Positions 1 to 56,808 are shown, numbered from the stretch's first letter. The stretch is 64,000 bases of DNA from Moniliella sp. 'wahieum' (GCA_003971905.1 RSEE01000020.1:310001-374000); one strand, 5' to 3'. The notes: generated from the sequence alone by a model not told the origin. Translations and numbers: made by a program.

Positions 1-741
1 TTATCCTCGGCATATAGTCCTCGGCCAAGGTACACTTATTGAATGCCAGTGTTCCTATGCATGCCTCGCTATTTCAATCGGTAGAATTTGAGACTCTTAA
101 AGAGTTGCCATCTCACGGTTGTGGGTTCGAGTCCCACGTGGGGCGTATTTTTATTCGCTGTCTATCGCACAACCTGTTGACTAAATTAAGCAGGATGAAG
201 CCTCCCCAGATTCAAACACCTTCCCTAATGACTTCTGCGGAGGTGAAGATCCGGATGGCGATGCACTGCATCAAGAAAACGGCAAACTGCTCCGACAACT
301 ACTAAAGCTAAGCGGTCCGGAGCCTCGGATGCTGCTCTCGGGCAGTCGACTTTGTCCGACATGATCTCTTCCCGTATTCCTTCCGGGCAAGATACACTAG
401 ATGACATTTGGAAGTGTTCCATGTCCGAGCCATTTGAGGAGGAGCTCAACGTGATCTGTGAGGTACGTTCCTGCGTCACTCGGCAGTTTTGCTCGTTTTG
501 CTCCTCGGGTTTACGTGTCTTTCAGGCCAATGTGACTCCGGCATCAAACCCAGAGCGGCTTCCCTTGCTCATCAACTCGCTTCGCGCTGGATCCGATTCA
601 CTGGTCTCTATAAGTACAGACAGTATTTATTTGAGAGTCACAGGGTGTGAAGCACCAGCACGCCCCGCAGCTGGCTTTTCCTGGGGCCAAGACCGACACA
701 CCTCCCGTTTACCACATGGACATTGTCATATGGACCTGTGA
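1..741 (+). CDS. RSA3: Ribosome assembly protein 3 (Rsa3)-like, 5' partial; introns ~30-193 and 463-525; frameshifted
   Basis: Spliced peptide DDIWKCSMSEPFEEELNVICE|ANVTPASNPERLPLLINSLRAGSD resembles the Rsa3 motif (F.++L+.+R....+P+LI.+L..G). GTACGT..TTCAG intron is in frame. Confidence 0.5.
63..145 (+). tRNA. tRNA-Lys(CTT) with 10-nt intron (100-109)
   Basis: Acceptor stem GCCTCGC/GTGGGGC, D-arm, anticodon stem TGAGA/TCTCA with loop CT-CTT-A, intron AAGAGTTGCC after position 37, T-arm GTGGG-TTCGAGT-CCCAC, followed by a T-run (pol III terminator). Confidence 0.95.
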
Positions 742-2528: not shown

Positions 2529-4176
2529 TGCGAGAAACTGCGTGAAATGGATGCGAGTTAGCAGTAGGCTCGGATCGCAGGCAAGCAAGGGCGCAGGCAG
2601 TTGGGACGGTGCCCAACGCCCAAGTGAGGGAATGCGGGGTAGAGCTTATTAGAGCCTGAAGCGCAAAAAGCAGGAGACGTACCTGCGCACAGCTTGGGTC
2701 AGCAGCGACGATCGGATGGCGGAGACGAGGGGGCGGATGGCGATGAAGGCCGGCGGAGTAGACAGTCTGGGCGGAGGTGGTGGTTGGCGCCTAGGAGGAA
2801 ACAGGGGGCGATGGTGGCAAACAGAAAGAGATGGAGGCCGGCGACCTGGGCAAGGGTGGCACGAGTCACCAGTGACGAGAACGACGAGTGGCCTAGTGAC
2901 TGGTGTGCGTGACTTGTGGCTGCATTCTGACTCGGCAGGCGAGGGAGGCACGACGCCACTGGAGCGGAGTTGCGGCCTGGGTGAGTCCGATAGCCGGTGA
3001 CCGGTGAGTACGGCGCACTGAGTATACTACCTGTTGAATGTTGCAATTGATTTGAGGCCTCGGCCCCCTAAGCGCTTAGCGCGCTGAGCATACCGCAGCA
3101 ATGCATCATCGAAACAACAGCAGCCCCCCAACAGAGTGGGATCGATGATTGGTGACCAGTGATTAATGATTCATCCCAGTCAGTCAATATACCAACAGCG
3201 AACCCATCGAGCTGCTGCATTCAGCGCCGCGGGGAAGAGCATCCTGGCATGCCCGGCACCTGCCCTCTTGGTGGGTGAGGGGAAGAGGAGATGGGCAAGA
3301 GTCGAGATACGACCACAACAAATGCATATGGAGGACACATTTCTTCTCTCGGCGGCATCATAACAGCAGAGAAACCGCGGAGGATTCACATCTGAATGAC
3401 TGTGTTGTGCGCAGCCGAGAGTCAAGCAGATTGGCTTTTGGGTCTTCCTTCATATATTCGTCCAAGTGGTGATGGATGATGGTGCGAGAGGCATTGGGCT
3501 GACGGATCATAGATCCGGTCCGCATAATTCCCTCTATGATTGGGCGGGTGGGAACGCATTCAGTGCCTGGGTGTCTTCCAGTTTTGCTCAAAGTAGCAGA
3601 CGCCATGACGAGACGCAAAAGAAAAAAAAGCCATCCACTGGTCAGTGAGTCAGCATACGTGCGGCGCAGGGATAACGGTATGGCGGCGGTTGTACGAGTT
3701 TTGTCTAAAGTGACGCTCACTCCCTATGCTCCACCGCTCAGAAGATTGCGTTATATGGAGCCCAGATCTGGTTCGATGCATTGGTTCAAGCACAGCCAGT
3801 ATCTTCTCAATATCCACTCAGTCCAGCCAGATGAATTCATGCATCTGAACTTCATTTGTATCTGCTTGGGGCCCAAATGACAGTCTGTTTACATCAACTG
3901 CCGTGGCCACGCTGATTGGGTCTCTCTCTCGGAAGGGTGGAGGAGCAACTTCAAATTTATACCAAAGATCGCATGCCACAGGGTCATCGACAACGAAGCA
4001 AATCCACATTACAGTTCCAAACACGGCCAAGAAGGAACTTAGCCTTGGGGCCAAGAAAGGAATGCGAGCATAAAGTGCAGCAGTATTGCTGCTGCAGATA
4101 ATACGATATCATTCCTGGTAATAGCAGGATCAGGGTGGATGGGGAGATAACGGGAGTCACATGTTCTGGATAGGCA

Positions 4177-5463: not shown

Positions 5464-6887
5464 GGTGGGAGGGGTCGGTAAGGTAGCGGGAGGATGGGTG
5501 CAAGGGTATACGGGCGCTTGGCAACCAAGGCGAGCCAGGTGGTTCGACTGAGATTGACGTAGCGGCTGCACACTGACTCCCCGCGGTTCTGCAGGGGATT
5601 AAAGGGGGTTCGCAACGACACGGCCTATAACGTCAGCAATGCACAGGCCTGGTGCCTGACCCCGGCTTGTAGTGATCAATCGCAGTCGGCTCATCTGCAG
5701 CCTGATGCTCAGGACCAGCTCTAAAAACAAACTCGATCTAACGTCCAATTCAAGTTCAACGTTCTAGACGTCCAAGACGTACGTGAGTGCGTCCAAGCTA
5801 CTGCTTCAAAGCTTCATGAGCGTAGTGAAACTAGTGAAACGAATTCCCCAATAAGAATGCCTCCCGCACTAGTCATTGTCTCTCCATCTCGGCTCCGCGC
5901 TCCCACCAACTCCCAGCCTCAGCTCCCAACCCCACAGCTCTCCTAGTCGCAAACAGAGCAAGGTGCACGTTCGCTATTAGGTAATCGCGGGGTCCGCGGC
6001 CCCACGCCCCCGCTCCCGCGGGGTTTGATCTAATCCCCACACGATTCGGGTGTGCGATGGATGACACATACCACTGGGTGATTGATTTGTTGTTGAAACG
6101 TTCAACGATCACTAGTGCCAATCAGTGCCAGCCTGTGCCGGCTCAGCCGGCCGGCAACGTCGGCGGCACGCACCGCGTCGCCTGGGTGGCCTCCATAGAG
6201 AGACTGGGTAAGTGCCAGATCGCCCACCCAGCCATTTGCACTGCCGCTGTGCTGGCTGGCATGCATTTCCGCTGTCGCCTCGTCGAGAGTGGATTGATGC
6301 GGGGTGGGCGGGATCGGCGCAGGGTAAGTGTCCTCGGCCGCCGATCAATGTGGCATTGTCTGCCGGCAAACACGGGCCGTGTGCGGGGGTGGGCGCTCGA
6401 GATTGCGAAACTGGCAGCGTGGGGTGGGTGGCTGCAGTGTGTGCCGGTGCTGAGACGCACGCAGCGCTCAGGCGCCCACACACTGCTAGGTACTAGCGGC
6501 GCATTGTCAGCACTGCCACTCGTGCTGAGCGCGCTGATTCCGATTAGGCTGTCGTGTAGCTTTGGCTCGGCAGCTGGGACCTGCTGGGACAGGCAGGGCA
6601 GCGCAGGGCAGCACAGCACAGCGCAGCACAGGCCAGCCGGCAGGGCCATCTGAGCTTCTCCACGCTCCTCCCGGCCGCTTGCAATGCACCACGGCAGCAG
6701 CACCGGCATTTGTGTCGGTCGTGCGCATGCATCAGGCACGCATCAGCACGATCGCATACTACTGCAGAAGACAGAACCCCCAACCGCAACACCGCAACCA
6801 CCACCACCTCCCTTCTCACCCTCACCCCCCCCCCCCACACACGTTCTCTGCTCCCCTCCCCACACACCGCTCTTTCAGCCTCTAGCG

Positions 6888-11154: not shown

Positions 11155-12019
11155 GTCGGAGCCACAGACTTGAAGGCCCCGGGGCAGAGAACGGAGAGGG
11201 ATCAGGAAGATCGAGATGGGCGAGGGAAGACGCAAGGCGACGAGCAGGTCGATAACTGAGACGAACCGACCTGCTCGTCGCCAATATACGAGGGTTGGGG
11301 GGTGAAAAGCGGAAGGTGGTGGGGTGGTGAGAAGGCTCTTGCCGCCGCCGGATGTGGGGCGTTGGCTTTATGGAGAGCTCGACGAAGGAATGAAGCGCAC
11401 AGACAGACAGGCGTGGTGCCTATAGGTGGGCGGGGGCGCTCGGAGAGAAAAGGTAGGGACAAGAGCAGTGTGTTTTAGTTGTGGGTGGCGTCGGGTATCG
11501 GACACCAACAAGGCCGCCTATTCAAGCTTCAAGCTTCAAGGTCGTAGGCCCCACAGGCAGTAGATGACTCAATTGAGTATATAGTGAGCGCAGAATGGCT
11601 TATCTTCCCACTCACATGTATATAGTGCGCCACATAGAACCCTTTTACAGCACCCTTTTGAACGCGTGCGGTCTCAAGCGTACACTGGTTAAGGAAATTA
11701 AGTACAGGTACACAGCGTGTGTATAGCCTGGGTAAGAGATATGTATCTGGACACTAAAATTTGCTCTACAACCCCCTCCACCGGATAGACGAAGATATAG
11801 GTACGGCGCCCCTTGTTGACATTTTGCTCCCTATACCCGATTGTGTGCTGGGGGCTGAACGCATCATATTGGCGTACACAGTGAACATAATGCAGTTATA
11901 TATTACGAAGAGGCACATACTTTTCAAGCTTTACCGGTTACCATTTAATCCCACATGTAAGAACGCCCCTGAGGTCTCCCTGAGGGGCCTGAGGCGCCTA
12001 CTGAGGACGTATTGAAGAC

Positions 12020-12061
12020 TCAAGCTTCAAGCTTCAAGCTTCAAGCTTCAAGCTTCAAGCT
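12020..12061. repeat. Heptamer tandem array (TCAAGCT)x6
   Basis: Read directly; a shorter array of about 3 units is at 11521-11540. Confidence 0.95.
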
Positions 12062-12430
12062 CAACGTTCACAAGTTGAACGTTCACGCGGTTCACAGCCT
12101 ATATAAACGTTGAACAATCCTGAGCGCCCTGAGCTGCCTACCTGGACTTTTGGGATCGGCCTAAAAAGCAAATTACAGAGACTATATCAACACCGTCTTC
12201 CCACAATCTATATCCCTTGGAGGCCGCTCAGCAGCACTAACGTTCGGCGCTCATTAAAAGCCCATTCACCGGTCAACTTTCTAGCTTTCAGCTTCAAAAG
12301 CTTCAACGACGGCCATCTGGATGTCAGCATGGCTGCGTCATCATGCCACATTCCATCCCCTCTGTTGGCTCTTCTCTCCCCTCTCCTTCTTCCGGCCCGC
12401 TCTCACAGAGCTGCTGGAATAATTCTGATG

Positions 12431-12660
12431 GTCCTCGAGGGTGATGCGGTATGGTGATAGTGGACTAAGCCAACCAAAAACACCTACAGACGAACTTCAA
12501 GCAGCCAGGCGCGACCAGGGGCTACCACTATAAGTTACGGGACAAGGAAAACAGAAGCGAGAAAACAACGGGACTGATGCTAGGCCTCAGTGACGCCGAC
12601 GGACTGAAGGGACGTTGGCCAAAACAAAGAAGCCACCCCCGCTGTGGATCAACAAGAAGT
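12431..12660 (+). repeat. Dispersed degenerate repeat family D, copy 1 (decayed ORF/TE remnant)
   Basis: Shares GGTCCTCGAGGGTGATGC, CTAAGCCAACCA, CCTACAGA, GAGAAAACAACGG and ACTGAAGGGA..TTGGCCAAA in the same order with 25500-25720. Confidence 0.75.
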
Positions 12661-13800: not shown

Positions 13801-15268
13801 GTTGGTAGTGAAAGTGGTGGTGGTATGCAATCGTCAGCGCTCAGCCTGAGCGCCATTCGGCCGGCAACCGCAACCGTTCCACTTCCTACCCAGTGTTACG
13901 TAATGAACATCCGATGCCGAATAATTTACCCCGTTTCAGACGTGTAGAAATAGCCGGGTGACATGTGACAGAAGAGTCCATTGGAGATACGACTCTCATC
14001 GACCTCACGGCTCCACACCAGGGTCCATAACCACGTCTCCATTTGTATCCACCCGCGCTACATCCTTTTTGGAAACGAGTGACAGGAGCCAGAAGGCCTC
14101 CCGACAACGTACAGTAACTCTGGGACCGCGCGTATAATATTATGGGAGAGAGAACTTGATTAGCGTGTGTTATATGGAGAAGAAAGCCGTGAGAGACGAT
14201 TTTGAGGACGCAGTATATTAAAACCCATAACAGGAGATGGAGGGATGGGGGAAAATGAGGATAGTAGATGGATTGGATACATCTAAGGACGGACTGGAGG
14301 TATATGTACCTCAGAAGGAAGGGGGCACAGCCGAGAGGTGAACACAGGATCTCCCAACTGATAGGAATCACGCCATAGTGTCCATACGGGCCTAGTGGGC
14401 CAAGGTCCCCCTAGGAGGGTGTGATTCTGACACCCAGGAAAAGCTACCCTATATACTGTAAGTGTGTGCCACTTATGAAGACTTTGTCAGTATTCAGTAC
14501 ACAGTCCAATGATGGCCACATGTGGTCTCTTGCCTTGGAACAACGCCTTTTTCTGGATCACCGTGTGGGGAGAGATACGAAAAAAATGAGCTCTTTTTGC
14601 CTAGCTTGATTACCCCCCCCCCAGCATTATACTCATTTACAGATGGATCTCCCCTTTACCGCTTGCTTTTCTCCCAAAGGTGGTAAATATAGGAAACTCT
14701 TTTGCCTTGTACCAACTCCATTTGTGCGTGCGTGTGTTTCCCACATCAAGACAGACAGCTATGGAAACAAAAAGTGTGGTTTATTGACTGAGAGACCCTT
14801 CTTTGCTGGTCGATCTGAACACAGCTATTCTGGTCCTGGACCATGAAGGAAAGGGAAGTTATATACAGCACTTTTCGAAAGCCCACCATTTTGGTCTTAA
14901 ATCTCGGGAGAGCTGATCGTGACCCCCAAAAGGGATACGTTGCTTGCAGCTATTATTGTCTCCATGCTGTTGTGCTTTGGCTGAAACCATCAGTCACATT
15001 GCTCAGTCTTTGATGAGCATATGAAGAGTCATGCGAGAGGAACCAATGTCTAGATAATGGTGGGGAATATACTAGCAACTGATTTTATTGATGGAGAGAT
15101 AAGGAAAAGCAAGATTGGAAGAAATGAACAAGGCAGAAAAGAGGAGATGTGCGACAGACATTTTTGGAAATGAGAGTGAGCTGAGGGGCTCGGAGGGGAT
15201 GCCGATTCAGCGAGGCCGTCTTTTTCGTCTTTCTCAGAGGTTTCTGTGCCTGGGCGGTTTTCGACTTC

Positions 15269-15423
15269 TCTATACTGCATCCATATCATTGACAGAGCTT
15301 AAGGCTGGGACAGGCAGAAACGCTACGCCTAAACCGACCACAGTTCATCTTGCGCGTGTTACTAGTACTTGGTAGCGCCATCCCTGCTAGGGAACCAGGG
15401 GAATCGCCAGGATATCAGGACCC
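15269..15423 (+). mobile_element. Dispersed ~155-bp repeat family H, copy 1 (possible non-autonomous Helitron 5' end)
   Basis: TCTATACTGCATCCATATCATTGACAGAGCT..TAAGGCTGGGAC..AAACGCTACGCCTAAACCGA..GGAACCAGGGGAATCG.CAGGATATCAGGACC recurs at 33928 (+) and 49364-49518 (-). The class assignment is tentative. Confidence 0.6.
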
Positions 15424-16574
15424 TCTGGTGCTCGCCATCCGGTCCCGTACCCGAGGTAGCGTGTGTGGACATGGGACACGGATGAACGTGTAGACATCTG
15501 AGCGAGGAACCATTTCCATTGAGACTCAGTCATAAATCGCTTCATGCATATGCCCTGAGGACCTGAGCCTCAGGCCTCAGGTCACGCGTCACGGTCACCG
15601 GTCATACATGCATGGTCGGCAGATCACCGGTAAGAGGTCAGATCTCAGATCTCAGACCCCTCAGCCTGAGGGTAACTGGTAACGAGGACTAGGCAAAGGG
15701 GCACTACTAAAGGGTGCTGGCTCTGGGGCGTGTGTGGCTTAGCAATACAAGACTAGGTACGACACGACGACATGTGCGCAGGTGATGCATGATGTATGAT
15801 GCACCAATGATTCTCAGGTCTCAGGCTGAGCCTCAACGCTGAGCCGCTGAGCCGCTGAGCCGCTGAGCGCTTAGTTGCTGAGGCGCCGTGGCCCAAAGCT
15901 GGGAAAATATTGGAGGGTGGACCCTGGCAGGCCTGGGCGGACTGCACCAGCCAGTTGTTTCTCGGGCAAGCCATCATTTGCTCCGTTTCGCCGAATTATT
16001 CGCAGGGAACTGGACAGGGGGGCAGTGTTCGGGCAAAAATCTGTTGGCCTGCTCTGCCTGCTGCCGGCTGCCTGGAAAATTTTCTGGGTTTACATGTGGC
16101 CAGCAAAAAAAGAGCGACAGAGGGTCGAATGGCGCTGTTCTGCAGGTGACTGAAGCACTCACGACTCGGTTGGCTGACAGCGCGGACACACGTTCAGTGC
16201 TTACAGTATCTGGCCACTAGTGACTAACTAGTGAGGGCGACCAAACCCTACCAAGGCGACCGACAGGTATACGTAGGAGAGAGAGCCAGCCCACAGGTTA
16301 CCTTTCTTCTTTTCTCTTCCACCAGTTCGCTTAATTCAGGAACTGGTGGAACCGCCTTCTTCTGCCCATGTCCGCTGACCTCGTCGAAAACACCCCGCCG
16401 GTACGTCCCCCCTCTCGAAGGTGGAAGCTGGAAGCAATCCTGCTTCTGTTGCTCCCATACCCGCAGCTTCGAGCCCACGCTCACGCGTTGTCTGCTGCTG
16501 GTAGGAAATTGCCGCGCTACCAGCCAACGAGCACATTATTCATGCTCCGGGTGTCCACACCCCACACCACCACC

Positions 16575-18554: not shown

Positions 18555-19955
18555 CCTCCCCCCCTCCTCCCCAATCCCCTCACACACATACTGCTCTCAC
18601 AAAAACTGCTCTTCGCAGAGCACATCGCATCCTCTTCATTTTTGGGTGATGATCCAGCGATAACCTGCATGTAGCCCGACTGCGGACATCCTTGCATGTC
18701 TCCCATTCTATCACATCAAAAGCATAAACCCCTCTCACGCTTAATGCACGCATCCTTACTATACATCTCCATCCTCTCCTTCCTTAGTATCGCTCAGGTC
18801 ACTCGTAAATTCTCTCACCAAGGCCCCACTGCATCAGGCTTCAGGTTTACTAGTAGAATTCACTGAGTTCAAGCCTTCTATCACAACACCACCCCATCGT
18901 CCTCTTTGCCTCCCGGCCCCTCCCTTTCCGGAAGGAAACTGCTGATGCATCTGCGCGTGGCTGGTTTGGTCCGTCGCTAATCTTCATGGCAGAACAGAAG
19001 CTTCGGTTCGAGCGGATTCTCGGATATCGCTCCCTTCGCTGAACGAGAGAACGTTCTAAAGATGATGCTGCAGACTGGAGCCGGGAGAGCGTCGTTCCCA
19101 TGTATAGCCTTCGTTTGGAACTTTTACGACCAGAACCACTAAGGCTTTACCGTGACCTGGCATCCTCTCTCTCGTAAGTACCAAGTGCTCCACCTGTGCT
19201 ACCGATGGCACCAATCTGAACCGGGATCTCGGTGGTTCAAGTCAATCGGCCAAGCCTGGAGACCACTGGAGATCAATGTGACAGACGCGCCGGCTGTGGT
19301 CGTCGTCTCTCCTAACGCCTTTGGCATGAACGACAAGGTCGGCCTAGAAGGCATAGCATGGTTATTGGCCCTCCGCCGAGTGAGGTACAGACTTATCGAA
19401 AGGAAGTTCGGTGGCATAATGGTAGACTAGAAGCAAAGGGCGCGGGGACCAGAAAGACAGGTTTTTATAAGCATAGGAACCTTACGCTTATTCAGGGTAA
19501 CGTGGCGTTAGCAAGTACGGAAAGGTCATGCAAACAAAGGATGAAAGTCAAGGAAAATGTTTTGAGAAGAACAAGACAAACAATCCTTTTCCAGGACACT
19601 AGAGGGAAAACATGGGCGGTCAAGCGCTAAGGCCACACCGCTGCGATAAACCACACTGCTCGAACCCAACCCATTCAAAAAACGATGCATGGCTCCCAAA
19701 AGGTTTTGGGAGAAACCAGACGGGTACAGATTGGGCTCGAGAAATGGGTTGAGAACGGACAAGGAGGTGGGATCAGAGTCACCCGGACTGAGAGCGAGGA
19801 AAGGGGCACTCGTCTTCCTGTCTTGGGGACAGGGGAAGTGGTCGGGGCTGTCGCTCGAAAGAGGGGGGTGAAACGAGGATCCTGGTGGAAGCCAAATGGG
19901 CCCTTGAAGGGTTATTATCAAGTTGAGTCGTCCGCTCGCGTGGGGAGTAAGAGAA

Positions 19956-23778: not shown

Positions 23779-23802
23779 TGACTAGTGACTAGTGACTAGT
23801 GA
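23779..23802. repeat. Heptamer tandem array (TGACTAG)x3-TGA upstream of KGD1
   Basis: Read directly. Confidence 0.9.
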
Positions 23803-25215
23803 CTACCACTCGCTCAGCCAGCGCCGCAGCTATGACCATGTCGGTTAGTTTTGGTGCAATTTATTGTCACACAGTGTCAGCCGCAGAGAAAGCACACTGG
23901 CAAAGAGCCAAGATGATGCGTGTTGCGGCCCCTGGGGCAAACTCCTTCCCACGGTTTCTTCCACATGCCAACGTGTTGACCAAAGGGTATGTCAGGGGGC
24001 GACGATTTGACAAGTCGCCTTGTGACATGTGACACTAAGGGCGAGCCACCTCCGAGGTCACTCTTACCCTCTTACACATCCGGGCACCACACCAGCATCC
24101 CTATTCTCTCTAGTAGCCTTGTGTGTCACATGTCACTAGCTTCACTCCTCTCCTCCTTCTCCTTCTCCTTCCTTTTTCCTCAGTCCAACCCAGCTCCTGT
24201 CTTTTGCATAACTGCACTTCGGACTTCGCTGGGTAAGTCCATAATATAGGGGTAATAGTGCGAAGAGAGTGGCATAGTGAAGGGGCATAAACAAAACATA
24301 CAATAAGAGGCACACGAATATCATACCCCAAACAGAGAGAGGAAAACGGTGTGTAGAGGGAACAAAAAGTGGACTGCTGCGTTTGTATCCCGACGGGCAG
24401 AGTGTAACGCTGCGGCTGAAGAACGGCCCCCTGTGTTTTCGGTTAAGGTGCGTTCTTCCACAAAAATACGATAGTATAGACGCTCCCAACTTTTCACGTT
24501 CTGTTGTTCCGGTGTCAGATCTCAGAGATCCATCAGTGGTGCCTATGCCCATAGGTGTGAATGGTTGCCCGGCTCTGGACTACTCCCAATACTGACATGC
24601 GATTGTTTTGCCATGATCATTTAACCCCAGAGCGATATATAATTGCCTTTTTCATCTCATCACGATGACTCCAAAGGGAGAGTCGATCTTCGAACAGCGC
24701 GAGCACATCATACACAGAAAAAAAGCGACTCGACACCCCTATCACTCTCATCTTCTTATCAATTTGATCAACGTCATCAACCCCTCTCCATCATCTCCCA
24801 ATCGTCCCCTGGGCGTTTCTTCGTCAGGTACTGGCTCAACAGTATTTAGTGCCAACCGCAAGAATTGCCTATCCACATTGCTCATTATGATCCCGTGTCA
24901 CTACCTTATTCGAAATATGGTATGTGGAGGAGCACCATTGGACACCGTGGCGACAGCCATTTTGCCTATGCATCCTTCAAGAGGCGCCGACTTGCGTCTC
25001 GTCTCTGGTTATTGTTACAGGAGATGGGCAACTGGAGATTTACGATGACAAAAAGGAGACAGTCATGATGATGAAAGCTTTGGTGGCATTATCTTTCAAC
25101 AGTGGTCCCAGTGCCGCCTGCTTCTTACATCCGTAGTTACAATGACATATGAAATCCGATACGACATTCACTGTACTGCACATACCAGAAAGGGCCCTCT
25201 GTGCACCACGAAGAA

Positions 25216-25320
25216 AATGGTACTCCCATTTTCCTCAATGGTACTCCCATTTTCCTCAATGGTACTCCCATTTTCCTCAATGGTACTCCCATTTTCCTCA
25301 ATGGTACTCCCATTTTCCTC
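25216..25320. repeat. Perfect 21-bp minisatellite x5 (AATGGTACTCCCATTTTCCTC)
   Basis: Five identical contiguous units with no spacers. Confidence 0.97.
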
Positions 25321-25499
25321 ATATCCAGCAGCCTCCTCCCTCGCGTTGCCTCCGTTCTTCGGGCTTGTCTCCGTTCCCTGCTCACAAGAGGGCAATTATT
25401 GGGATTCGAGACACTGGATGTCGTATCGCAACTCCCCACGGAAGAATCTCAATAAGAGGTAATCATTATCCTGATGATGATGAAACCTGGAGTCCGGAA

Positions 25500-25720
25500 G
25501 GTCCTCGAGGGTGATGCAATCGCACTGGTGGTGGTGGTGGTGGTCTAAGCCAACCAGCAACGCCTACAGAGGAACATCAAGAAGCGAGTCGCCACTAGGA
25601 GCGGGCTAAGCTGCGGAACGAGGAAAAACAGGAGAGAGAAAACAACGGAACTCCCAGGCCCGAGGAGGAACTGAAGGGAAATTGGCCAAACCATGAGCCA
25701 CCCGATGGCTCAACAGATGA
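25500..25720 (+). repeat. Dispersed degenerate repeat family D, copy 2
   Basis: Collinear blocks shared with 12431-12660. The translations share LSQP.TPT.E, KQ.RENNGT and LKG.WP, with in-frame stops. Confidence 0.75.
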
Positions 25721-26628: not shown

Positions 26629-26816
26629 TTTGTCCAGGTTGGTGTGGTGAAGGGCCTGGATGAGGGCTGTGCAGATCGGCTTGCTCAACCAGCCGGGAGG
26701 CGCAGATGGCGAACGGGCAGTGTTGTCATACTTCGCACTATACCGCTGTTGGCCGCAGCCTTGCGCCACCACTCAGCCAGGGGGCAGTATAACATGGGAT
26801 GATTTTAGACTAGGTT

Positions 26817-26842
26817 AGTAGGGTTACGATGACAACCCTACT
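26817..26842. promoter_or_regulatory. Inverted telomere-like (Tbf1/telo-box-type) site in the shared RPL25/RPL17 promoter
   Basis: AGTAGGGTT-N8-AACCCTACT, a perfect 9-bp inverted repeat. TAGGGTT also recurs upstream of RPS24. Confidence 0.55.
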
Positions 26843-26926
26843 GCCCCGTTGTTTCCCGCCTTCTCCGCCCTGGGCGACATTGTCTGCTCTGCCGCCTACC
26901 TGACCGTCACCGCCAAGCCGTTCGCC

Positions 26927-27676
26927 ATGGTTGTGCGTATACACACTCGTCCCTGCGTTGTTACATGCCCGCTGCTTTTTCCCACTATGGCCTAGGCTGG
27001 CACCCTGCGTGTTGTGTTTTCGGGCAGTGACCTCGCCTTGTGGGGAAATGGCCAGGGCGGGCTAACGCAATGCCGTGCGGATCTGCTAACCCTCCTTACT
27101 TTAGCAATACGCTATCCGTGACTCGGACCTTGCCGAAAAGAGCGCCAAGAGCCGTGGGGACTACCTGCGTGTTCACTACAAGAACACGCGCGAGACCGCG
27201 GCCACGATCCAGGGCATGAAGCTCTCGAAGGCCTACTCATTCCTCGCCGACGTGCAGGAGAGAAGAAGCAGTGTGTGCCATTCCGGCGGCACAACAAGCA
27301 CGTTGGCCGCACGGCGCAGGCCAAGCAGTGGGGGTCTGTTACCCAGGGTCGCTGGCCCACCAAGAGCGCCAAGTTCCTTGTCGCCCTGCTTAAGAACGCC
27401 GAGTCGAACGCCGACCAGAAGGGCCTGGAGGTGGAGAACCTGCTGATCAAGCACATCGTCATCCACCGTGCCCCGCACACCTACCGGCGCACCTACCGTG
27501 CCCACGGCCGCATCAACCCCTACAAGGGCTCCCCTTGCCACGTTGAGATCCACCTCGTTGAGCAGGGCTCGGCTGTGCCCAAGACGGTTGAGGTGGCGGC
27601 CCCCCGCCTTAACAAGCGCCAACTCGCCATTCGCCGCAACGCCGCCGCCCAGGCCAAGGCTGTCGCTTCCGCCTAA
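26927..27676 (+). CDS. RPL17: 60S ribosomal protein L17 (uL22); intron 26933-27104; one indel ~27265
   Basis: [58 protein letters not shown]. Confidence 0.97.
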
Positions 27677-32500: not shown

Positions 32501-33571
32501 GGGATCCACTCTGATGACGAGGACGAAGATCACTTGAACCCCTCGACTCCAGCCAGCTCACGAGGACATACCTTGCCTGCCCCCGGCTCTGACCGAGGCA
32601 AGCCCAAACCTGCTTCGTCCACTGCGGAGACCACTTCCTTCAGCGCCCCACAGTCGCCGCCTCGCATCTCTACTGAGCCTCCTCGTTCGGGCTCGGCCGC
32701 AGAGATCTACCATACTCACCCCTGGCTAACAGGGGGAAGCGAATTGCAACCAGTCACGTCGGGCTCGGGCCTGGTGCAAACGATGAAAGACGAGGGCAAG
32801 GGCGATGGGAAGGAAGTCTTCCGCCTGGCCGATCGGGTGCCTCGGATCTTTCGCAAACGCCAGTGTCGATGCACCAGCGGGTTCGGCGAACAGGACCAAC
32901 AGCCTGCGACATCGAACCATCGCACGCAGTCCTTCTGCCCCTCCCCTCTCTGCTTCGCGCCGCGAGGTAGGACGGGACCCGGTACCGTCGACCGTGACTG
33001 TGCCGAAGCATTCAGGCGCATCGCAGATCTCGCTGGGCCCGCAGGGGAGTACAAGGAAGGCGGACCTAGCTAAGAGGAAGCCGACACAGCCGCCCAAGCC
33101 TTCGGTCGCAGAGCGCTTGGCCCACGAGTCGGCGGAAAACTGGCGCCCGACGTTGGATGGCGAGCTGGGACCGTGGCGGTTCACCGATCCATCGGTGGAC
33201 ATGATTGAGGACAACACATTTGTCCTCCTCAATAAGTCGATGACTGTTCCCGAGCGGAGGAAGTACTTTGGTTCCTCGCAGCATCAGGAAGAGTTTGTCT
33301 ACGACCCGGACGTGGTGTATTCAACTGCCTTTTTCTAACATGATGGATGTACGTTGGCTTCCTCCCTGTTGGCGATGCACATCATACTGACTTTCCCTTC
33401 CCTCTCCGTCACCAGTTCAATACGTTTGACTTGGCCATCGGGATCGTGCGGATGAACCTGCGCCGGTTTTTCGGTGCCGGGATGCCTATCCGGTACACCC
33501 TCCGTGCCAAAGAAGACGAGGACATCTGCATGGCTACCATCTCTTTCCAGATCGTTCAAGAAGACGATTGA
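29514..33571 (+). CDS. DUF1769-family protein split by a ~1000-aa low-complexity insert; intron near 33349-33414; many indels
   Basis: N-part: IRSEHF.GRVLVRI, EYFRDRSRRFAIQIEGRF, IIFG, AHMIDP. C-part: ERRKYF, FVYDPDVVYS..FF, FNTFDL, MPIRYTLR. Confidence 0.75.
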
Positions 33572-33927
33572 TCCCCTTTTTTGTGGCGGTACCCCATTCT
33601 CCTCCCCCTCGCTTCTCTCGCGCATGTGATACGGCGCTAGTATCTGTCCCTGAATCCCCCCTCATACCCTACCACACTCTTTTATTTCCTTCCCCGTTAT
33701 TTCCTATTGGGCACTAGCCACACTCGCTTTGTCATCCCCTGCTCGCCCTCACATTGGCAGATAGCCGCATTCGCTCACTTGATCTCCCTCCTTTTGTGGT
33801 CATGCTCAGCGGGCTCCCCTGCTTCTTGGCGTTTTCACCTCGTTTCCCTGTTCCTGAACTAATGATGTTTCCTTTTTAATCTGCACTTGCCTTTGCTAGT
33901 AGTCTACCTCTTATGTGGGGTCTTGTC

Positions 33928-34035
33928 TCTAGACCACGTCCATTTCATTGACATAGCTTAAGGCTGGGACCGGGGGAACGATACATCTAAACCTAACCGT
34001 TCATCTTGCGGGGGTTACTTGGGGTGGCGTTGCCC
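33928..34035 (+). mobile_element. Dispersed repeat family H, copy 2 (truncated, more diverged)
   Basis: TCATTGACATAGCTTAAGGCTGGGAC..CTAAACCTAACCGTTCATCTTGCG..GTTAC matches copies 1 and 3. Confidence 0.6.
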
Positions 34036-34613
34036 AGTGAAGTAGACATCAGTGGCAGTGGCACGCCCTCCATGCTCGCTCAGCGCGGGAACCTTGGTGT
34101 ATTGTTCTTAGAGGCGGGAAACAGTGCTCGCTTACAATGCTGCTGATCGCCAAAGCAAACTGCAGTGGCCAAAGAGAAATGAGACTGTCTGCCTGCCTGC
34201 CCTTACAACGCAAGTTCCAGTGGCTCCAACTTCACCGTCCCACTACGATCCCCGGCCCAGAACTCCATAAGATGGGGCTCACCGTGGCCAATAAAGAAAT
34301 CCAACTACAGCCATACCTGCCCAAAGAAAAGCCTAAGCAGGGGTTGGTTTCATTGCCATGAGAGTGCTTGCAAAGCGGGGGCGAGGGGAAAGCCGAGCGT
34401 GGCCACATGATGGGCAATATGGTTGAAGAGGAAAGTCCAGCAACGCTATCGGACAAACAGAAGTCGTCCCCGCATAACAGCGGATAGATTTTGGTGCTTC
34501 GTGGCCCGAGAAAACCCCAGGGAAAGAAGCATGGGGGTGACAAACAAGCGGAACAAGGAGGGGGTCCCATGACATGCCAATCACGGTCATGGCGACAAGC
34601 CACAGTATTCCAT

Positions 34614-42636: not shown

Positions 42637-43158
42637 GCTGCACCAGGGCAGGCGTCGTGTCGTCACACACACGCCGCACTTGGATGAAGGGTGGGGGGAG
42701 GGGAGGGGGTGGGAAACGCGGAGTCGTAGGGGCGCCCGATGGAGGGGGGATGGGAGGGGCGATGGGGGGCGATAGAGGCGGCGGTGGAGGTGGCGTCGGA
42801 GGTGGGGGTGGGGGAGGGTGGCACGGGCGCAGGTTGAACGTTGAACGTACCGAATCCATTACTCGACGAGACTGAGTACCAGAGAGCAGTCTGATAGCCG
42901 TCACGTGATGCCACCGCCCAATTCCGCGGGGTCACCTGTTATCAACTTCCGTTCCGCCTGGCGCGTCAACTGACGACTGAGACTGACATGTGACATGCAT
43001 GCGCTGACAGGCCGTGTTGCAATTTGAAATGCGCAGGCGGGCTTCTGCGGCTCTCAAGAGGTGGGCATCACCCACCGGGTGGCATCACACATCGTCCATG
43101 GCCCAGCGTGCTTTTTTTTGGTCTGCTCGTCCGGGCCACCGCGGGCGGTGAAGGGACG

Positions 43159-45165
43159 ATGAGGGCTGCCGCACGCAGCCAGCTGGGCCACCACCACTTC
43201 TTCTGCCCCGCCTCGCGTCCGCTCCGCCAGAGGGTGTTTGGCCCGCACCGACTTCTCCCCACGCTTGCCCGCCCCGCCGCCGCCGTCCGCCCCATCACCA
43301 GCATGCGTCCCGCCGCCACCAGCCTGGCCCCTCCCCAGCCTCCTCAGCCCCCGTCCTCTCTCCCTGCGCTGCCTGGGTTTGTCCAGGTCGCCTCCCTCGA
43401 TGCCCTGCACGAGTCAGCACGCCATCATATCACCCTCCGCCACCGCGGAACAGGCGAATACCACAACCTCCTTCTCTTCACCTTCCCCCCCGCTGCCGGC
43501 TCCGCATCTTCTACGCCGCGTCTCTACTGCATGGAAGCCGCCTGTCCGCATGTGGGTGCGCCGCTGGAGAATGCGCACGTCCATCCCGCCGATCCCGATT
43601 CTGATGTCGAGTCCCCTAGTCTTGAACTGGCTGATGTGGAGGACATGGTAGTTGTCTGTCCCTGGCACGAGTACGACTTTAACCTGCGCACAGGCGAAAG
43701 CAGCCATGGGCTGAACGCATGCGTATACGACGTCAAAACAGTAGTCTCGCCGCAAGGAAGCAGCATTTGGATTCAAACGCCCAAGCCTCACGATACGGCT
43801 GCTGCCGTCCAGGATGACGATTGGGAGCTGATCGAGCGGAGACCCGTGAGTGAGTCCTTCTCACACCAATTTGCTGCTGTACAATCTCGCGTGGACCCGG
43901 CCGAGGCAATGGACAAGCTGGCCATCGATACCCAAGAGCCCGTCCCGACACATCTCCAACCAGCTTTGCTGCTGAGGTAGCAGCGGTGCCCAGCCCCGAT
44001 CCATCCCCCACTACGTTGGTCGAATGGGCCTGCCTTGTCCTCCGCTCGCCCGAGCCCGCGCGCAAGGTCGCCTACACTCAGCAAGCGGTGCGCGAATTTC
44101 GCGACGGCACAATTCGCAGTATCGGCGGAGGTCTCCCTCGTTCCCGTCCTTCCGACGAACAAGGTCCTGTCTATCGGCCTCATTCCAAGTTTCTGATGGC
44201 CAAGGCTGGATGCCTCCGCTGCCCGACCGGGACGCGGAGATTAACCAAGCTTACGAACAACAATGGGAATGGCGCCGTCCTCCGAGCCAAGTTCCCCCTC
44301 ACACCCCACCAAGGGAAGATACAACCCAAATGATGGACCCGACTCAGATGGCGCGTAGGGGAAAGGGGGGGTCCCAAGGTAGTCGGATCAAGATGCTGCA
44401 CAGCCTGGCCAACATCGAACTTTGGGCCATCGACCTGGCGTGGGACATTATTGCACGAGGACAAGAACTAGCACATCGCCACTCATTCGCATATTTCCAC
44501 CCGCTTGGGGGAGAAAAGGCGCCCAAACTACCATCCCAGTTCTTTGCTGATTTTGCCAAGGTCGCTGAGGACGAAGCCAAGCACTTTAGTCTGCTTCAAG
44601 AACGGCTTTGGGCACTGGACAGGATCCGTTTTGGCCAATTGCCGATCCACGCCTCCCTCTGGGATAGTGCGTTGGAAACATGTCATTCCCTTACCGCCCG
44701 TCTGTCGATCATCCACCTTGTCCACGAGGCTCGAGGGCTGGACGTCAACCCACAAACGATTGCTAAATTTGAGCGGGCTCAAGACATGCCAAGCACCGAG
44801 GTGCTTCGTATTATCCACATGGATGAGGTCACCCATGTGGCTGCGGGCCATCGTTGGCTCACGTGGCTCTGCCACAACGCCTCTTCCCCCACCTTAAACC
44901 CAGTGCAAGTGTTCCGCGACGAAGTCAAGTACAATTTTGTAGGCCGTCTCAAAGGACCGTTTAATGGCCCTGACCGTGCAAAGGCAGGCTTGGTACGTCT
45001 CCCGCGTCCCCATCGCATGATGATTCCCACTGACTCCTCTTTCTTTCACAGGCAAAGGACTGGTATGAGGGCCTTTACGGTGAGAAACCCCCACGGGCTA
45101 AGGATGCTCCGATCGTGGGCGTCCGGCGCGCTGAGGTATCCCATGGCGAACGGATTGAGACTTAG
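43159..45165 (+). CDS. Rieske [2Fe-2S] domain fused to DUF455 ferritin-like diiron domain; putative mitochondrial presequence; intron 44993-45051
   Basis: Rieske ligands CPH(VG) and CPWH(EYDF). Ferritin-like ligands LHSLANIE, DEAKHF, HEARGLD, DEVTHV. Confidence 0.88.
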
Positions 45166-45604
45166 ATCCGGAGGCTGGACGGAGTTTAGCCTACCCCATT
45201 TGTTCTCGACCTATCTTGATCTTTGCCCGCTATCACTTCCTGTCTGCATTACCAAAAATTGGACGCCACATCTGTACGAAATGTGTATTGAGGCCATGAA
45301 GCCTGAGGTTAGCCTAATTAGATCCAAGAGAGCATCAGGACAATAAAACAAAGTTAAAGTACCGGGCGGGTGGTCAGCTCGCAGAGGACCGCTCCGGTGA
45401 CCCCCCCAGTGACCACATGGAGCGGCCCCCCGCTTTGTGCTGACTTTTGGCTGACAAATTTCCCCGCATTCCCTTTTCTTCGCCATAACTAGTAACTGAA
45501 AAGGCGGTTCTTCATTGGCCCGTTTTCTTTCGCCCATCGTCCGTTACTGCACCCACTCCAAAGGGCATAATACCTCCCAGATGATATATAGACCTGCAGG
45601 CGTA

Positions 45605-48513: not shown

Positions 48514-49363
48514 CAAGCGGTCCCCCCCAGATCAAATGTTCACCCAGCCCTGGCACGTTATCTGTTACTTTGCTCAACATGACAGGTTGTGACAACTGGT
48601 TGCAGGCTAGCTGGAGAGGATTGGTAAAAGAGTACATATCTTCTCATCTATTCGCTATATATACCGCCAAAAGAGGGCGAATGAGTGGTTAGTAGGTATA
48701 TTATAGTAGTGCAGCAGGAGCTTCTAAGTACTCAACTATGCTATACTACTATTCCTAGGCTGCTGTAGTAGGGACGTCTCTTTACCAGATGTGGTAGGCC
48801 ACATACTCTGTTCCTGAGCCTGCACCTTCTTCTACTCCGGAGACACCTGCTCAACTCGGGACAGAACCTGCTACCTAAAACCCCGCCACCTAACCACCTC
48901 GGAGCCTGTTATTCATTGAGAAGCTGAAGAAGAGGGAAGGAGCGAGACACTACTCAGGACAAAGAAATTTTGGAAATGGAAGCGAAATCAGCCAAACAAT
49001 GACACCTGTTTTCAAGCATATGCTAGTACAAGTTGGTAGAAGATGATTTGCTGGAACTCTGGTTAGGATGGCTGGGACGGTTTTATTCCGTTGACCCTCG
49101 TGTCAGCTCCGGGCTTATATAGTTGAGACAGAAGATGGCTTTTCTCTGGATCTAGGCTGTTACCATTTCCAGCTCTGATGTGGTTGGCATTTGGACAAAA
49201 TCTCATTTGATGATTCTTCGTGTGACAGAGGCCTGTGCAGAGTATGCATAGTATAGGTAGGAAAAGAGCTTACCAGTATGGTAATCAACTATGGATTCGA
49301 GCCCCACAAAGGGGAGGGGGAGGCGATGTGATGAGTCGAGATGGTTGTCCGCTTATTGGAGGT

Positions 49364-49518
49364 CCTGATATCCTGTCGATTCCCCTGGTTCCTTAACATT
49401 AGTTGGTTGCGCTACCACGTAACTCACGCAAAAGATGAACGGTTCGGTTTAGGCGTAGCGTTTCCCTGTCCCAGCCTTAAGCGCGTCAGCTCTGTCAATG
49501 ATATGGATGCAGTATAGA
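49364..49518 (-). mobile_element. Dispersed repeat family H, copy 3 (inverted)
   Basis: The reverse complement matches 15269-15423, and the first ~31 nt are identical. Confidence 0.65.
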
Positions 49519-50599
49519 TTGGCCGGAGCATCGCTCGTTCGGATCAATGATCGCAGCGATGAGGGTGGGGGCAGAAGCGAACGATATACGGCCCACATGA
49601 TTCGGTCGCCACGAGGTTACTGCTTGGTTACTGTTGCAGCCCCTTCCGAGTTGAACGTTTGAGTATTGAGCCTGAGGATATTGATGTGTTGACGAATTAT
49701 TACTAGTTACTGATGCATGATGCCCCGGCGGGATAGATGTTCGTCTGCCCGAGTGGCGTTTGGGCTGGGGTGGAAGCTGCAGACTCCACGGCACAACGAG
49801 GGGGTTTTTAATCTGTGGCTGGCCGAGTGTGATGTGTGATGTATGTGACAGAAATGTGTGACATGCATGTGACATGGGACACATGGCCATGCACTATCTA
49901 TGATCTATGGCGGGTGATGCATATGCGATGCATGATGGCCGATGATCGAGATCATCGGGATGTGGAGACCACAGACGGCAGAGTGGTGCAGTGCTCCCAC
50001 GTGAAGCAGCTGAGACTAGGCACAGCCACGGTGACATGTGTGTCATAGCGCGTGTGTGATGCATGAGGGGAAGCGAGTGCTTAGCGCTTAGCCTGCTCTA
50101 GCGCCTAGCATCAGGCGTTGAACGTTCAAGCTGCGCGGCGGAGGACGGAGGACCAAGTCCCAAGTGCTGAGGCTGCGGCTGCGATGCGAACGTTGGACTG
50201 TTCCGCTGCAGATACTGGTCCTGAGCCTGACGTACTGCCCGTACGGAGGAACAGGGGCCAGGCCCAGCAGCACCTCCGGGCACCCCGCCAGCCCCAGCCC
50301 ATGGAACAAACAACGGCCCTCTCCCGTCTCCCATCTCCCACTGGGGTGGTCATCGATCACTCGCACTGGCGAGTGGCTCAGCGCAGGCGATGCATGATGC
50401 ATGACGCATCAGTCTGATTCCATAATCCATAATCCATGCACATGTGAATCATCCATCGATCGAGCGCCCTCGGAGCTTTCTACTTTCGGGGTGGGACGTC
50501 GGGACGGGGTTGGGAGCAGGATGGGGGCCGCCTATCGGTGCCAGCCCCCTGAGCATCTCACTACTACCACCACCACCACACACACGCCAGGCCCCGACG

Positions 50600-52559: not shown

Positions 52560-53573
52560 CTCTTCCTTTTCTCTCTCTTTTTTTCTTCTCACACCGGTTA
52601 TCAACTTGCTTCACGCGTTATGTCTTCGTTGCACTTTTGTCAATCCACCAGCTCTTTCATCTTCGCCCAACTATGTGTCGGCGGTGTCCCTACTTTCTCT
52701 TTCCATCTCCTCTATTTGCTCGCTCCACCTCGCACGGCCCTGCTCTCTCATCGACGCTGGGGCTTGTTCTGGGGTGGTAGTAATCTTTTTTTGCCTTCAC
52801 AGCGCATTGTTCTGTCACGGTCTCCATGCATTGCATACCATGAAATTGCCACGGGGCTTTGATCATGAAGTACCCACCCTCGGGACTTTAGCTATGACTG
52901 AAAACGCTGCAGCTCAGCTAGGTGGAGTCGTCTCGAGATCACAATGATTGCAATGGCCAACAGCCAACCATCGCAGAGCACCTCGGGCGAGTAACGAGAT
53001 GCTTCGTTCTGTTTTCTCGTGGGATTTAATTTCAGTTGCGTTGGCGGGGCCCTCAGCGTACTGAGTCAGTACTTAGACTGAGCCTCAGGCCTGATCGCAC
53101 GGAGCACTCAGGACCATTATGCAATCAGAGAGCGATACCTACTTGTAAAGCCGTCCATGATCACACGCATGTTACCGCGGTGGGGGGGGGGGGGGGAGTG
53201 TGTGCTGGTGGCAAATAGAAAGCAACAGCTCGATAACAAAAGATACAATATCTAGAGGCGACTATGGCAATGGGGAGAGTTGCATAGAGTGTTGCATCCA
53301 GTATACTAGTAACAACGCCCTTCTCTCAGGAGTCTCTCCTTTTCCTGTGACATGTGGCATATGACATCATACAACGCCAACGGCGGCTCCACCACAGTGG
53401 GCAGCACAACCAGGGCCCCACCTTTTTCACAACAGTCGCTCGCTCAAGCTATTTTACCACCCTCGGACCCTCCGAACTTTGCTGGCAACATCTGTTTTAA
53501 ACCATGCCGGTTCTCCTCTCTTGTGGCAGTTTCCATCCTCATTTTCACTGCTATCCTGGAAGCCTCGTGTGCC

Positions 53574-55399: not shown

Positions 55400-56808
55400 T
55401 GTTGGCCTAGGGAGCCGGACGGGCAGAAGGATGAGGAGAAGGTGATGGATTGGAGCCAGAGTTGGGTCTGGGTACAGAGGCATCTATATAGGAGGCTGGA
55501 CTAGGCACAGGGACAGTGAGTCACACAGGAGAGAGTGCAGGGCACAGGGACAGTGACACGCAGGGACGTCAGCGTGGAAGCCGATGGAACCGAGGCGAAC
55601 CTGGTCTACCGACTGGGAGCCAGAGGATCACAGTCAACACCCCCGCTGGCCAGGGAACCCGGAGACATCGGTTGTGGATGAGCTCCTGCCAGTGGATAGA
55701 GAGGGAGGGACTTGAGTGGCAACCGGGACGAATGGCCTGGAGTTGTGCATGGCCACACGACTGGCCTACACCCCCGCTGTCCAGGATGACACCTGAACGA
55801 GCCGAGCGCTTGTGGTTGGTGTATTGTGCGACCGCCAGATGCTTGTAGAAGTCTTAGAAGTAAAAGTAGTAGGGGTTGCGCCCCGAAGCGATTTGGTGGG
55901 CAAAAGTAAAAAGCACCAGTTATAGGTGTAGTGAAAGAAAATTGGAAACTTGGAGTAAATGCGGTCCAAGGTCGTTTGGCATCAAAATTGGATGCGTTTG
56001 GTAGTTGTTTGGTTCCGCATGCCTGGTGCCAGTGGGGTCCATTGGGCATGGGAAATGAACGGGCGCTATGCGTCAACCGTCTTGATCTGTTTGGGTTCTC
56101 TTTGTTGTTGAAAAAGAGGAGTGGAAGAAGTTGGGTGACCACCCCCCCCATCCTTTCCCAGGTGCCCCGGATGAATTGGCAATCCGGGCGTGTAGCCGTG
56201 GGTGGGGCACTTGATGAGCAGCCACCCCGCTTTCTGCGATTCGCCTGCGCCGTTTGTCGTTGGAGGAATTTCGTCTCGTTGACGATACCCGACACGTTTT
56301 GTTCCGTCGTGTGTTGTCCTAAAAATCATTGCCCATCTGTGGGGGACGAGTGTGCCGATTGTGGCGGTAGTATGCCGATTGTGGCGGTAGTATGCCGATT
56401 GTGGCGGTAGTATGCCGATTGTGGCGGTAAGGTGCCGATTGTGGCGGTGGTGTTGTTGGGCGGGAGGACGGGTGTGTCTTGTGGGCTTGGCGGCTTAGCT
56501 TGGGCTTGTAGGCTTGGGGGTGGGCTTGCTTGAAGAGCGCTCCCCTTCCGGGGGGATCAGATGTAGCTCTGTTGGCCTAGGGAGCCGGACGGGCAGAAGG
56601 ATGAGGAGAAGGTGATGGATTGGAGCCAGAGTTGGGTCTGGGTACAGAGGCATCTATATAGGAGCTGGACTAGGACAGGGACAGTGAGTCACAACAGGAG
56701 AGAGTGCAGGGCACAGGGACAGTGACACGCAGGGACGTCAGCGTGGAAGCCGATGGAACCGAGGCGAACCTGGTCTACCGACTGGGAGCCAGAGGATCAC
56801 AGTCAACA
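55400..56808 (-). mobile_element. Intact non-autonomous LTR retroelement (TRIM-like), 1409 bp, TSD TCAAG
   Basis: LTRs 55400-55639 and 56570-56808 differ only by a few 1-nt indels and have TGTTG...CAACA termini. TCAAG at 55395-55399 and 56809-56813. GCGGGGG tract abuts the left LTR on the minus strand. No gag/pol motifs inside. Confidence 0.93.
56353..56448. repeat. 20-bp tandem repeat x~5 (TGCCGATTGTGGCGGTAGTA) inside the LTR element
   Basis: Units start at 56353, 56373, 56393, 56413 and 56433. Confidence 0.95.

Follow-up and report, generated by a model that had tools for sequence, protein, structure and literature searches.

RAG and Transib make perfect hairpins, and Artemis opens hairpins with an offset. 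Transib and RAG-like transposons have 5-bp target duplications and CACAGTG-like element ends, and Hermes prefers nucleosome-free 5' regions. Hairpins on the flanks are formed upon excision in hAT, Transib, MULE and RAG and are opened by host enzymes such as Artemis, as described in PMC5499845. According to PMC5873905, Ac/Ds footprints in yeasts carry palindromic P insertions, centred on the complement of the base adjoining the element, and the Artemis relative Pso2 matters for them. Basidiomycete DNA transposons with 7-bp duplications include hAT7 in rusts and Kyakuja in Laccaria, and the CMCT clade unites CACTA/EnSpm with Transib, both as given in PMC12730594. Here we present an analysis of a 64-kb stretch of DNA from Moniliella sp. 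'wahieum' (GCA_003971905.1, RSEE01000020.1:310001-374000; hereafter the window, 56% G+C, positions counted from its first letter), which is rich in decamers consisting of two T-N-A anchors around a 4-bp palindrome; these are probably the footprints of a transposon.

Decamer counts and the anchor rule

The sites follow the rule T-N-A, 4-bp palindrome, T-N-A, with the middle base identical in both anchors. A scan of the whole window delivered 101 TSA-N4-TSA decamers (S being C or G), 45 of them with a self-complementary core. For TNA-pal4-TNA with the same N in both anchors there are 49 matches at 32 loci, against a mean of 2.33 and a maximum of 6 in 200 dinucleotide-preserving shuffles, whereas TNA-N4-TNA with a non-palindromic core stays at the background of these shuffles (43 seen vs 39.0 expected). 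An earlier first-pass annotation of this DNA had proposed that palindromic cores are specifically enriched, which these counts bear out, and its chance estimate of 2-3 sites per 64 kb agrees with the shuffle mean. The four variants which it described side by side at 15570-15654 are present on re-reading of the sequence, and all 27 decamer positions that it listed are among the 45 with a palindromic core; three of them, at 12076, 50119 and 53085, have mixed TCA/TGA anchors and fall in the long-P class treated below.

Every trinucleotide XYZ was counted in XYZ-N4-XYZ across the window. Palindromic and non-palindromic cores number 24 and 12 for the anchor TCA, 18 and 21 for TGA, 4 and 5 for TTA, and 3 and 5 for TAA, while the remaining 60 anchors, when pooled, have a palindromic core in 77 of 1,511 cases (5.1%), which is the chance level. 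Enrichment is confined to the four T-N-A anchors, so that the rule extends from T-S-A to T-N-A in general. The TSA of the first-pass annotation is thus part of the rule, but its limit to C or G at the centre does not hold, since TTA and TAA are enriched as well. C or G occupies the centre in 33 of 40 chains; TSA makes up 69% of the TNA sites in DNA outside open reading frames (ORFs), and a preference for C/G was discarded as not significant against this availability (p=0.085).

With the first T left free, hexamer palindromes of the form A....T give 60 matches, 53 of which are preceded by T, against 3, 3 and 0 for C....G, G....C and T....A, respectively; T and A are therefore both required, symmetrically about N. 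The anchors are direct and not inverted (49 same-N matches vs 4 complementary-N loci), and the mixed-anchor sites (TCA/TGA or TAA/TTA) at 3069, 12076, 50119 and 53085 form a separate, rarer class. Fourteen of the 16 palindromic tetramers are in use as core; AATT and GTAC were never seen in this position.

No excess comparable to that at 4 nt was found in the window for TNA-palindrome-TNA with spacers of 2 or 5-10 nt, nor, against shuffles, for palindrome-based periods of 5, 9 and 11; an apparent excess at a 3-nt spacer is mostly due to TCA/TGA triplet repeats. Exact period-7 runs with at least 7 matches number 29 vs 3.45 in 20 shuffles, and exact period-8 runs 6 vs 0.75. A further 34 near-rule loci satisfy 8 of the 9 constraints (8.4 expected), indicating that older or variant events exist too.

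Minimal event and flank rule

Each of the 40 chains was extended to its maximal exact period-7 run. The modal run length is 12-13 nt, not 14 nt or more, and the typical locus reads TNA-pq-q'p'-TNA-pq. In the L type the 2 bases following the last TNA are the first 2 of the core; in the R type, its mirror image xy-TNA-y'x'xy-TNA, the 2 bases preceding the first TNA are the last 2 of the core. Sixteen chains are of L type, 7 of R type, 6 of both and 11 of neither, the flank rule being satisfied in 29 of 40 where chance gives 12% (p=1.5e-18); two of the loci of neither type, 20759 and 29203, fall within real or long ORFs. Exact 12-mers TNApq-q'p'-TNApq occur at 31 positions vs 0.14 expected and the mirror 12-mers of the R form at 22 positions vs 0.18 (200 shuffles each); nine other anchors (ANT, CNG, GNC and others) gave 0-2 matches in the same test.

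The minimal unit is a 7-bp insertion, by which xyTNApq becomes xyTNA-pq-q'p'-TNA-pq or the mirror form, and not a duplicated heptamer. Deletion of one TNA and the core yields a plausible ancestor, xy-TNA-pq, so that the 7 inserted bases are made up of 5 direct and 2 inverse copies. A pair of inverted bases directly next to an intact flank is the hallmark of a DNA hairpin that has been opened (P nucleotides). Among the inferred pre-event sites there is a weak, symmetric leaning towards G-T-N-A-C, with G in 45% at position -2 (symmetrised, n=29 sites). Among paralogous segments within the window an informative 7-bp indel was not found.

A micro- or minisatellite origin would explain the period differently: near-self-complementary heptamers (a 6-bp palindrome plus 1 base) would form slipped-strand hairpins and so be preferentially born and expanded by replication slippage. 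The general excess of period-7 runs, arrays reaching 6 units, the presence of at least 2 whole units in 9 of 24 two-anchor loci, and heptamer repeats without T-N-A, e.g. TTGGGGG, CGGAGGA and AGCAGAG, are all as slippage would have them. In 15 of the 24 two-anchor loci that obey the flank rule, however, the periodic run is 12-13 nt and thus under two whole units, which excludes a tandem duplication of existing sequence there. Array edges are phase-locked to TNA and not arbitrary, the restriction to A....T hexamer palindromes and the lack of a comparable excess at periods 5, 9 and 11 are not those of slippage, and the 7+2+7 and 7+4+7 products with reverse-complement spacers described below are not predicted by it. 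The loci lack the whole-unit growth, arbitrary edges and free choice of unit of a replication-slippage microsatellite, and we regard slippage as quite unlikely to be their origin. It may nevertheless lengthen arrays by acting on hairpin-prone heptamers. Four of the five arrays with at least 3 anchors start at the first T or 1 nt before it and end 2-4 nt past the last A, which fits growth from an L-type founder.

Promoter microsatellites are similar in being short-period arrays in 5' intergenic DNA that are likely length-variable; they differ from the loci described here, in which the founding event is not whole-unit and the units follow a common sequence rule in constant phase. As an alternative to regulation, the first-pass annotation had suggested a mutational process acting in open promoter DNA. 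The mutational, non-coding and 5'-side parts of this suggestion stand. Template switching plus slippage, which it named as the process, misfits the anatomy on account of the runs under two units and the 2 inverted bases that abut the intact flank.

Sibling products

In the 7+2+7 class (class II; 5824, 11979, 12119) whole 7-mers are separated by 2 P nucleotides. Its 3 loci (vs 0.02 expected) indicate that the duplicated unit is 7 bp and not 5. The 7+4+7 class (class III; 49857) has P dinucleotides from both ends between the 7-mers and is represented by 1 locus vs 0.0 expected. The four mixed-anchor sites constitute the long-P class (4 vs 0.33 expected), in which P tracts are 4-5 nt long and the middle base is complemented; the flank rule is satisfied at 4 of 4. 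A possible one-nucleotide hairpin-offset class would comprise 2-3 loci vs 0.3 expected, one being an ordinary tandem repeat.

Two further product types were rejected. A 5-bp duplication with P nucleotides at both ends (TNA-pal4-N'A-TNA) gave only 2 matches and was dropped, since the 7+2+7 class speaks for 7 bp. Exact duplicates of a 7-mer whose joint is not palindromic (class 0) were found at 4 loci and are unspecific, other anchors giving 2-10.

Location of the loci

The intergenic placement noted in the first-pass annotation is confirmed: although stop-to-stop ORFs of at least 150 amino acids (aa) take up 63% of the window, 25 of the 32 loci lie outside them (p=3e-6). On a rough gene map, built on ORFs and Pfam only, the loci lie 5' of genes, 9 of 10 spacers with at least one gene 5' end carrying them. 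The window scan found no locus in the sole exception, the 474-bp divergent spacer between the L23A and L17 genes (26648-27121), and none in either of the two convergent 3'-3' spacers (18597-19528, 33336-34234). An assembly or sequencing artefact would neither avoid ORFs, nor be bound to T-N-A, nor follow reverse-complement flank rules, and we consider this origin next to negligible.

The position 5' of genes is also what would be expected if the decamers were a promoter grammar, that is, selected sites of a general factor that recognises two TSA half-sites at a distance of 7 bp and prefers symmetry, as the first-pass annotation had put forward. Some of the cores (ACGT, CATG) are similar to known motif cores. 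With almost any palindrome serving as core, however, no fixed sequence is being read, and the half-sites are direct and not inverted. A site array of a transcription factor has a defined recognition sequence; here the core is free and predictable from the flank. A binding code has no reason to follow the flank rule, while a copying or repair event has, and the sibling classes are likewise irrelevant to binding. The lack of any locus in the divergent ribosomal-protein promoter spacer also speaks against such a factor. The regulatory reading is thus unsupported, and we hold it to be very improbable. The same annotation had mentioned ATTCACG heptamer arrays in Ustilago promoters, for which a full-text literature search gave no match.

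Clusters of loci are found at 11.5-12.3 kb, 15.5-15.9 kb, 23.8-24.5 kb and 49.7-50.4 kb. The window also holds three dispersed copies of a repeat of about 160 bp, 15267-15425 (+), 49361-49518 (-) and 33926-34010 (+, partial), with blocks 83-100% identical; two of them are no more than a few hundred bp away from such clusters. The repeat gave no tRNA or Rfam match, and neither a target duplication nor inverted ends are obvious; it may represent a family of small non-coding RNA genes or an element resembling a short interspersed element (SINE). The paralogous segments 12452-12575 and 25532-25652, 80-89% identical over about 120-300 bp, each lie beside a cluster. The words C-TCA-G and C-TGA-G are frequent near the clusters.

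Proposed mechanism and points against it

With moderate confidence we interpret the decamers as scars left by the insertion and excision of a cut-and-paste transposon, itself unseen, that duplicates 7 bp, strictly targets T-N-A and forms perfect hairpins on the flanks. The element itself, its hairpins, the nuclease offset and the joining step are inferred from sequence. Integration at a 7-bp staggered target, xy-T-N-A-pq, would duplicate 7 bp, and excision would leave both flanks as perfect, non-offset hairpins. A host nuclease would open each hairpin 2 (or 3) nt past the tip and so leave self-complementary 3' overhangs of 4 nt, which read pq-q'p' at the left flank and y'x'-xy at the right. 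End joining that retains one overhang and drops the other would give xyTNA-pqq'p'-TNApq (L) or xyTNA-y'x'xy-TNApq (R), and with one 3' overhang kept the net gain would always be 7 bp. For opening j nt past the tip, j=2 would give the core pqq'p' or y'x'xy, j=3 the identical product because the target is T-N-A, and j=4-5 would complement the middle base. Blunt joining after fill-in would lead to 7+2+7 and 7+4+7 products with reverse-complement spacers. A palindromic unit would regenerate itself whichever overhang is kept, so that repeated events, perhaps with slippage, could build heptamer arrays. The symmetry of T and A about N is expected of a dimeric enzyme whose cuts are 7 bp apart. To our knowledge, no process other than the insertion and later excision of a cut-and-paste transposon is known to join a target-site duplication, a symmetric target motif and P nucleotides.

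Several observations weigh against this interpretation. The flank rule is broken in 11 of 40 chains, and chance alone gives about 2.3 loci. L types outnumber R types on the + strand (16 vs 7), although a symmetric model predicts no bias; the difference is not significant. Runs of at least 14 nt are found in 9 of the 24 two-anchor loci obeying the rule, where about 1 in 8 is expected from chance palindromic targets, so that slippage or a preference for palindromic targets contributes too. No convincing TNA-centred 7-bp direct repeats enclosing inverted ends were found in the window with 40-12000 bp between the repeats or, for short remnants, 8-400 bp; the best case has 10 of 14 positions, which is within background. 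None of the 206 stop-to-stop ORFs of at least 110 aa matches a transposase family in Pfam. About 47 events in 64 kb would require an element not seen in the window to have been very active. The scars are also far more uniform than experimental Ac/Ds footprints, of which PMC5873905 reports 28 types among 128 excision events in Candida.

Uniform products and the missing element are accounted for by a second reading, in which no transposon takes part: an endogenous nuclease, e.g. a domesticated transposase, makes site-specific cuts at T-N-A in open chromatin, as staggered or hairpin-capped breaks, and repair adds 7 bp in one step. Scar anatomy and statistics are also consistent with it. We know of no endogenous process that gives a target-site-like duplication together with P nucleotides, and such a nuclease is therefore without precedent; moreover, products consisting of a whole 7-mer, P nucleotides and a second whole 7-mer resemble classical target duplications, and no candidate nuclease gene was found among the ORFs scanned with Pfam. 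Break and repair independent of a transposon appears unlikely.

More tentatively than the transposon origin as such, and with slightly less than an even expectation, we suggest an undescribed kind of transposon, or a transposase-derived nuclease, in Ustilaginomycotina that combines a 7-bp duplication and a strict T-N-A target with perfect flank hairpins of the RAG/Transib kind and visits promoters frequently, its uniform scars amounting to about 1-2% of the non-coding DNA. If this is true, the scars tell which target an unseen element prefers, how long its duplication is, how its hairpins are shaped and what their repair results in, and the genome is a natural archive of thousands of hairpin-repair events, with a natural dataset on hairpin opening and joining in a basidiomycete. 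The heptamer arrays would be new tandem repeats, and potential cis-regulatory DNA, stemming from transposon traffic and not from slippage; such traffic alone could make and lengthen gene-adjacent tandem repeats. A regulatory-looking grammar of fungal promoters would then be a mutational record, which calls for caution in motif discovery.

Comparison with described transposons

The scars resemble the products of RAG and Transib (V(D)J coding joints) in that an even palindrome directly abuts the unaltered flank end (pq|q'p'), seen at the 31 and 22 positions of the two 12-mer forms vs about 0.15 expected, and the 2-nt arm is the outcome of opening 2 nt past a hairpin tip. They differ in that the joint sits between two copies of a T-N-A-centred duplication, which is 7 bp and not 5 bp long. 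Ends similar to recombination signal sequences (CACAGTG-like) were not found in the window.

With hAT elements the scars share the retention of both copies of the target duplication and the short palindromic insertion at the joint, and their 5'-side location has a parallel in the preference of Hermes; the 7-bp length agrees with hAT7 only and not with classical hAT (8 bp). The scars keep the edge base, with the axis of the even palindrome following it, whereas in Ac/Ds the palindrome is centred on the complement of the edge base; this points to perfect hairpins and not to the Ac type. An Ac-type offset hairpin, which predicts odd palindromes and a period-6 class, was rejected, the palindromes of the scars being even; the period-6 class TNA-p-q'-p'-TNA shows a weak enrichment at best when TCA/TGA triplet repeats are left out. 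Further differences are the target, nTnnnnAn for hAT and nnTnAnn in the scars, and the heterogeneity of experimental hAT footprints. Neither a hAT transposase nor hAT-type terminal inverted repeats were found within the window.

In Tc1/mariner and PIF/Harbinger a short anchor (TA, TWA) is likewise duplicated with few bases between the copies, and since such elements have inverted ends, this filler may form a palindrome. Footprints of these groups were excluded as a source, their element-derived filler being constant per family, while the filler of the scars comprises 14 tetramers and derives from the local flank. CNIRT6 of Cryptococcus (3-bp duplications) and KDZ1 (8 bp) were also considered, and neither is a model for 7-bp scars. 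We know of no described superfamily that combines 7 bp, nnTNAnn and even P nucleotides. No account of palindromic heptamers anchored by T-N-A, or of arrays that arise from excision footprints, came up in full-text literature searches.

Individual loci and arrays

The cluster 15567-15604 can be parsed as three adjacent single events: CC-TCA-GGCC-TCA-GG at a palindromic target, TCA-CGCG-TCA-CG of L type, and GG-TCA-CCGG-TCA of R type. Removal of one TNA and core per event leaves the ancestral ...CCTCAGGTCACGGTCATAC.... It is followed at 15638-15656 by the array TCA-GATC-TCA-GATC-TCA-GA with 3 anchors (2 events) and a length of 19 nt (7n+5), beginning precisely with the T of its first TNA and ending 2 nt past the last TNA. 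TGA-TGCA-TGA-TG at 15783-15794 is a minimal 12-nt scar of L type. At 15837-15886 lies the period-8 array (GCTGAGCC)n, whose unit consists of GC-TGA-GC, an odd palindrome, and an additional C; the array is possibly a product of the same process with one added nucleotide.

The longest array, (TCAAGCT)x6 at 12020-12061, has 6 anchors and a left edge exactly at the first T. An L-type array of the same unit, TCA-AGCT twice followed by TCA-AG, is located at 11521-11540. Another L-type array, (TGACTAG)x3 plus TGA-CTA at 23779-23805, has 4 anchors and lies about 380 bp upstream of the 2-oxoglutarate dehydrogenase ORFs (minus strand). At 60729-60767 the array CATG-TGA-CATG-TGA-CATG-TGA-CA is followed by TAA-CATG-TAA-CA.

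In the class II locus 5824-5839 (AGTGAAA + CT + AGTGAAA) the spacer is reverse-complementary to the 7-mer's first 2 bases, and in that at 12119-12134 (CCTGAGC + GC + CCTGAGC) to its last 2. The third, at 11979-11994 (CCTGAGG + GG + CCTGAGG), has a third CCTGAGG 11 nt upstream, starting at 11968. The class III locus 49857-49874 reads TGTGACA + TG + CA + TGTGACA, with P dinucleotides from both ends. GT-TGA-ACGT-TCA at 12074-12085 represents the long-P class, the middle base being complemented in one copy; further long-P sites are at 3069-3080, 50117-50128 and 53083-53094.

The region 2994-3171, upstream of a minus-strand RING-finger ORF, holds the simple decamer scars (class I) 2998 (R) and 3160 (L) together with the long-P site 3069. 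Six class I loci (49700, 49711, 50057, 50081, 50350 and 50395) occupy 49700-50404, in the spacer upstream of a hydrolase-like ORF.

Gene content and other features of the window

Judged from sequence, the window comes from a basidiomycete of the Ustilaginomycotina. The DUF455/Rieske protein (44024-45343) has 57-63% identity to proteins of Tilletiaria, Melanopsichium, Sporisorium, Ustilago and Violaceomyces, and 80-88% is reached only in proteins on further contigs. Stretches similar to the window were not found in the other genomes of the survey. A Rieske ORF at 42994-43977 adjoins the DUF455 ORF at 43976-45343, both on the + strand. They are probably one gene split by an intron or frame change, as PF00355 and PF04305 sit in a single protein in most homologues. 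Pfam matches further include a kinase, a bZIP protein, a nucleoside transporter, 2-oxoglutarate dehydrogenase, the ribosomal proteins L23A, L17 and S24, ATG11, CobW and others; introns split several of these genes.

A perfect 21-bp tandem repeat in five copies (AATGGTACTCCCATTTTCCTC) occupies 25216-25321 in the spacer that separates the genes for 2-oxoglutarate dehydrogenase and L23A. The segments 55400-55639 and 56570-56808 share two blocks (95 and 115 nt) with 100% identity, 1169-1170 bp apart, which indicates a very recent local duplication; a 20-bp minisatellite in five copies (56349-56448) lies between the duplicated blocks. The 9-mer TCAGGCTCA or its complement occurs five times, at 7055, 8773, 28530, 49667 and 50222. 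A tRNA-Leu gene of 85 nt with the anticodon TAA is located at 62-146 (+) and was called by ARAGORN and Rfam alike.

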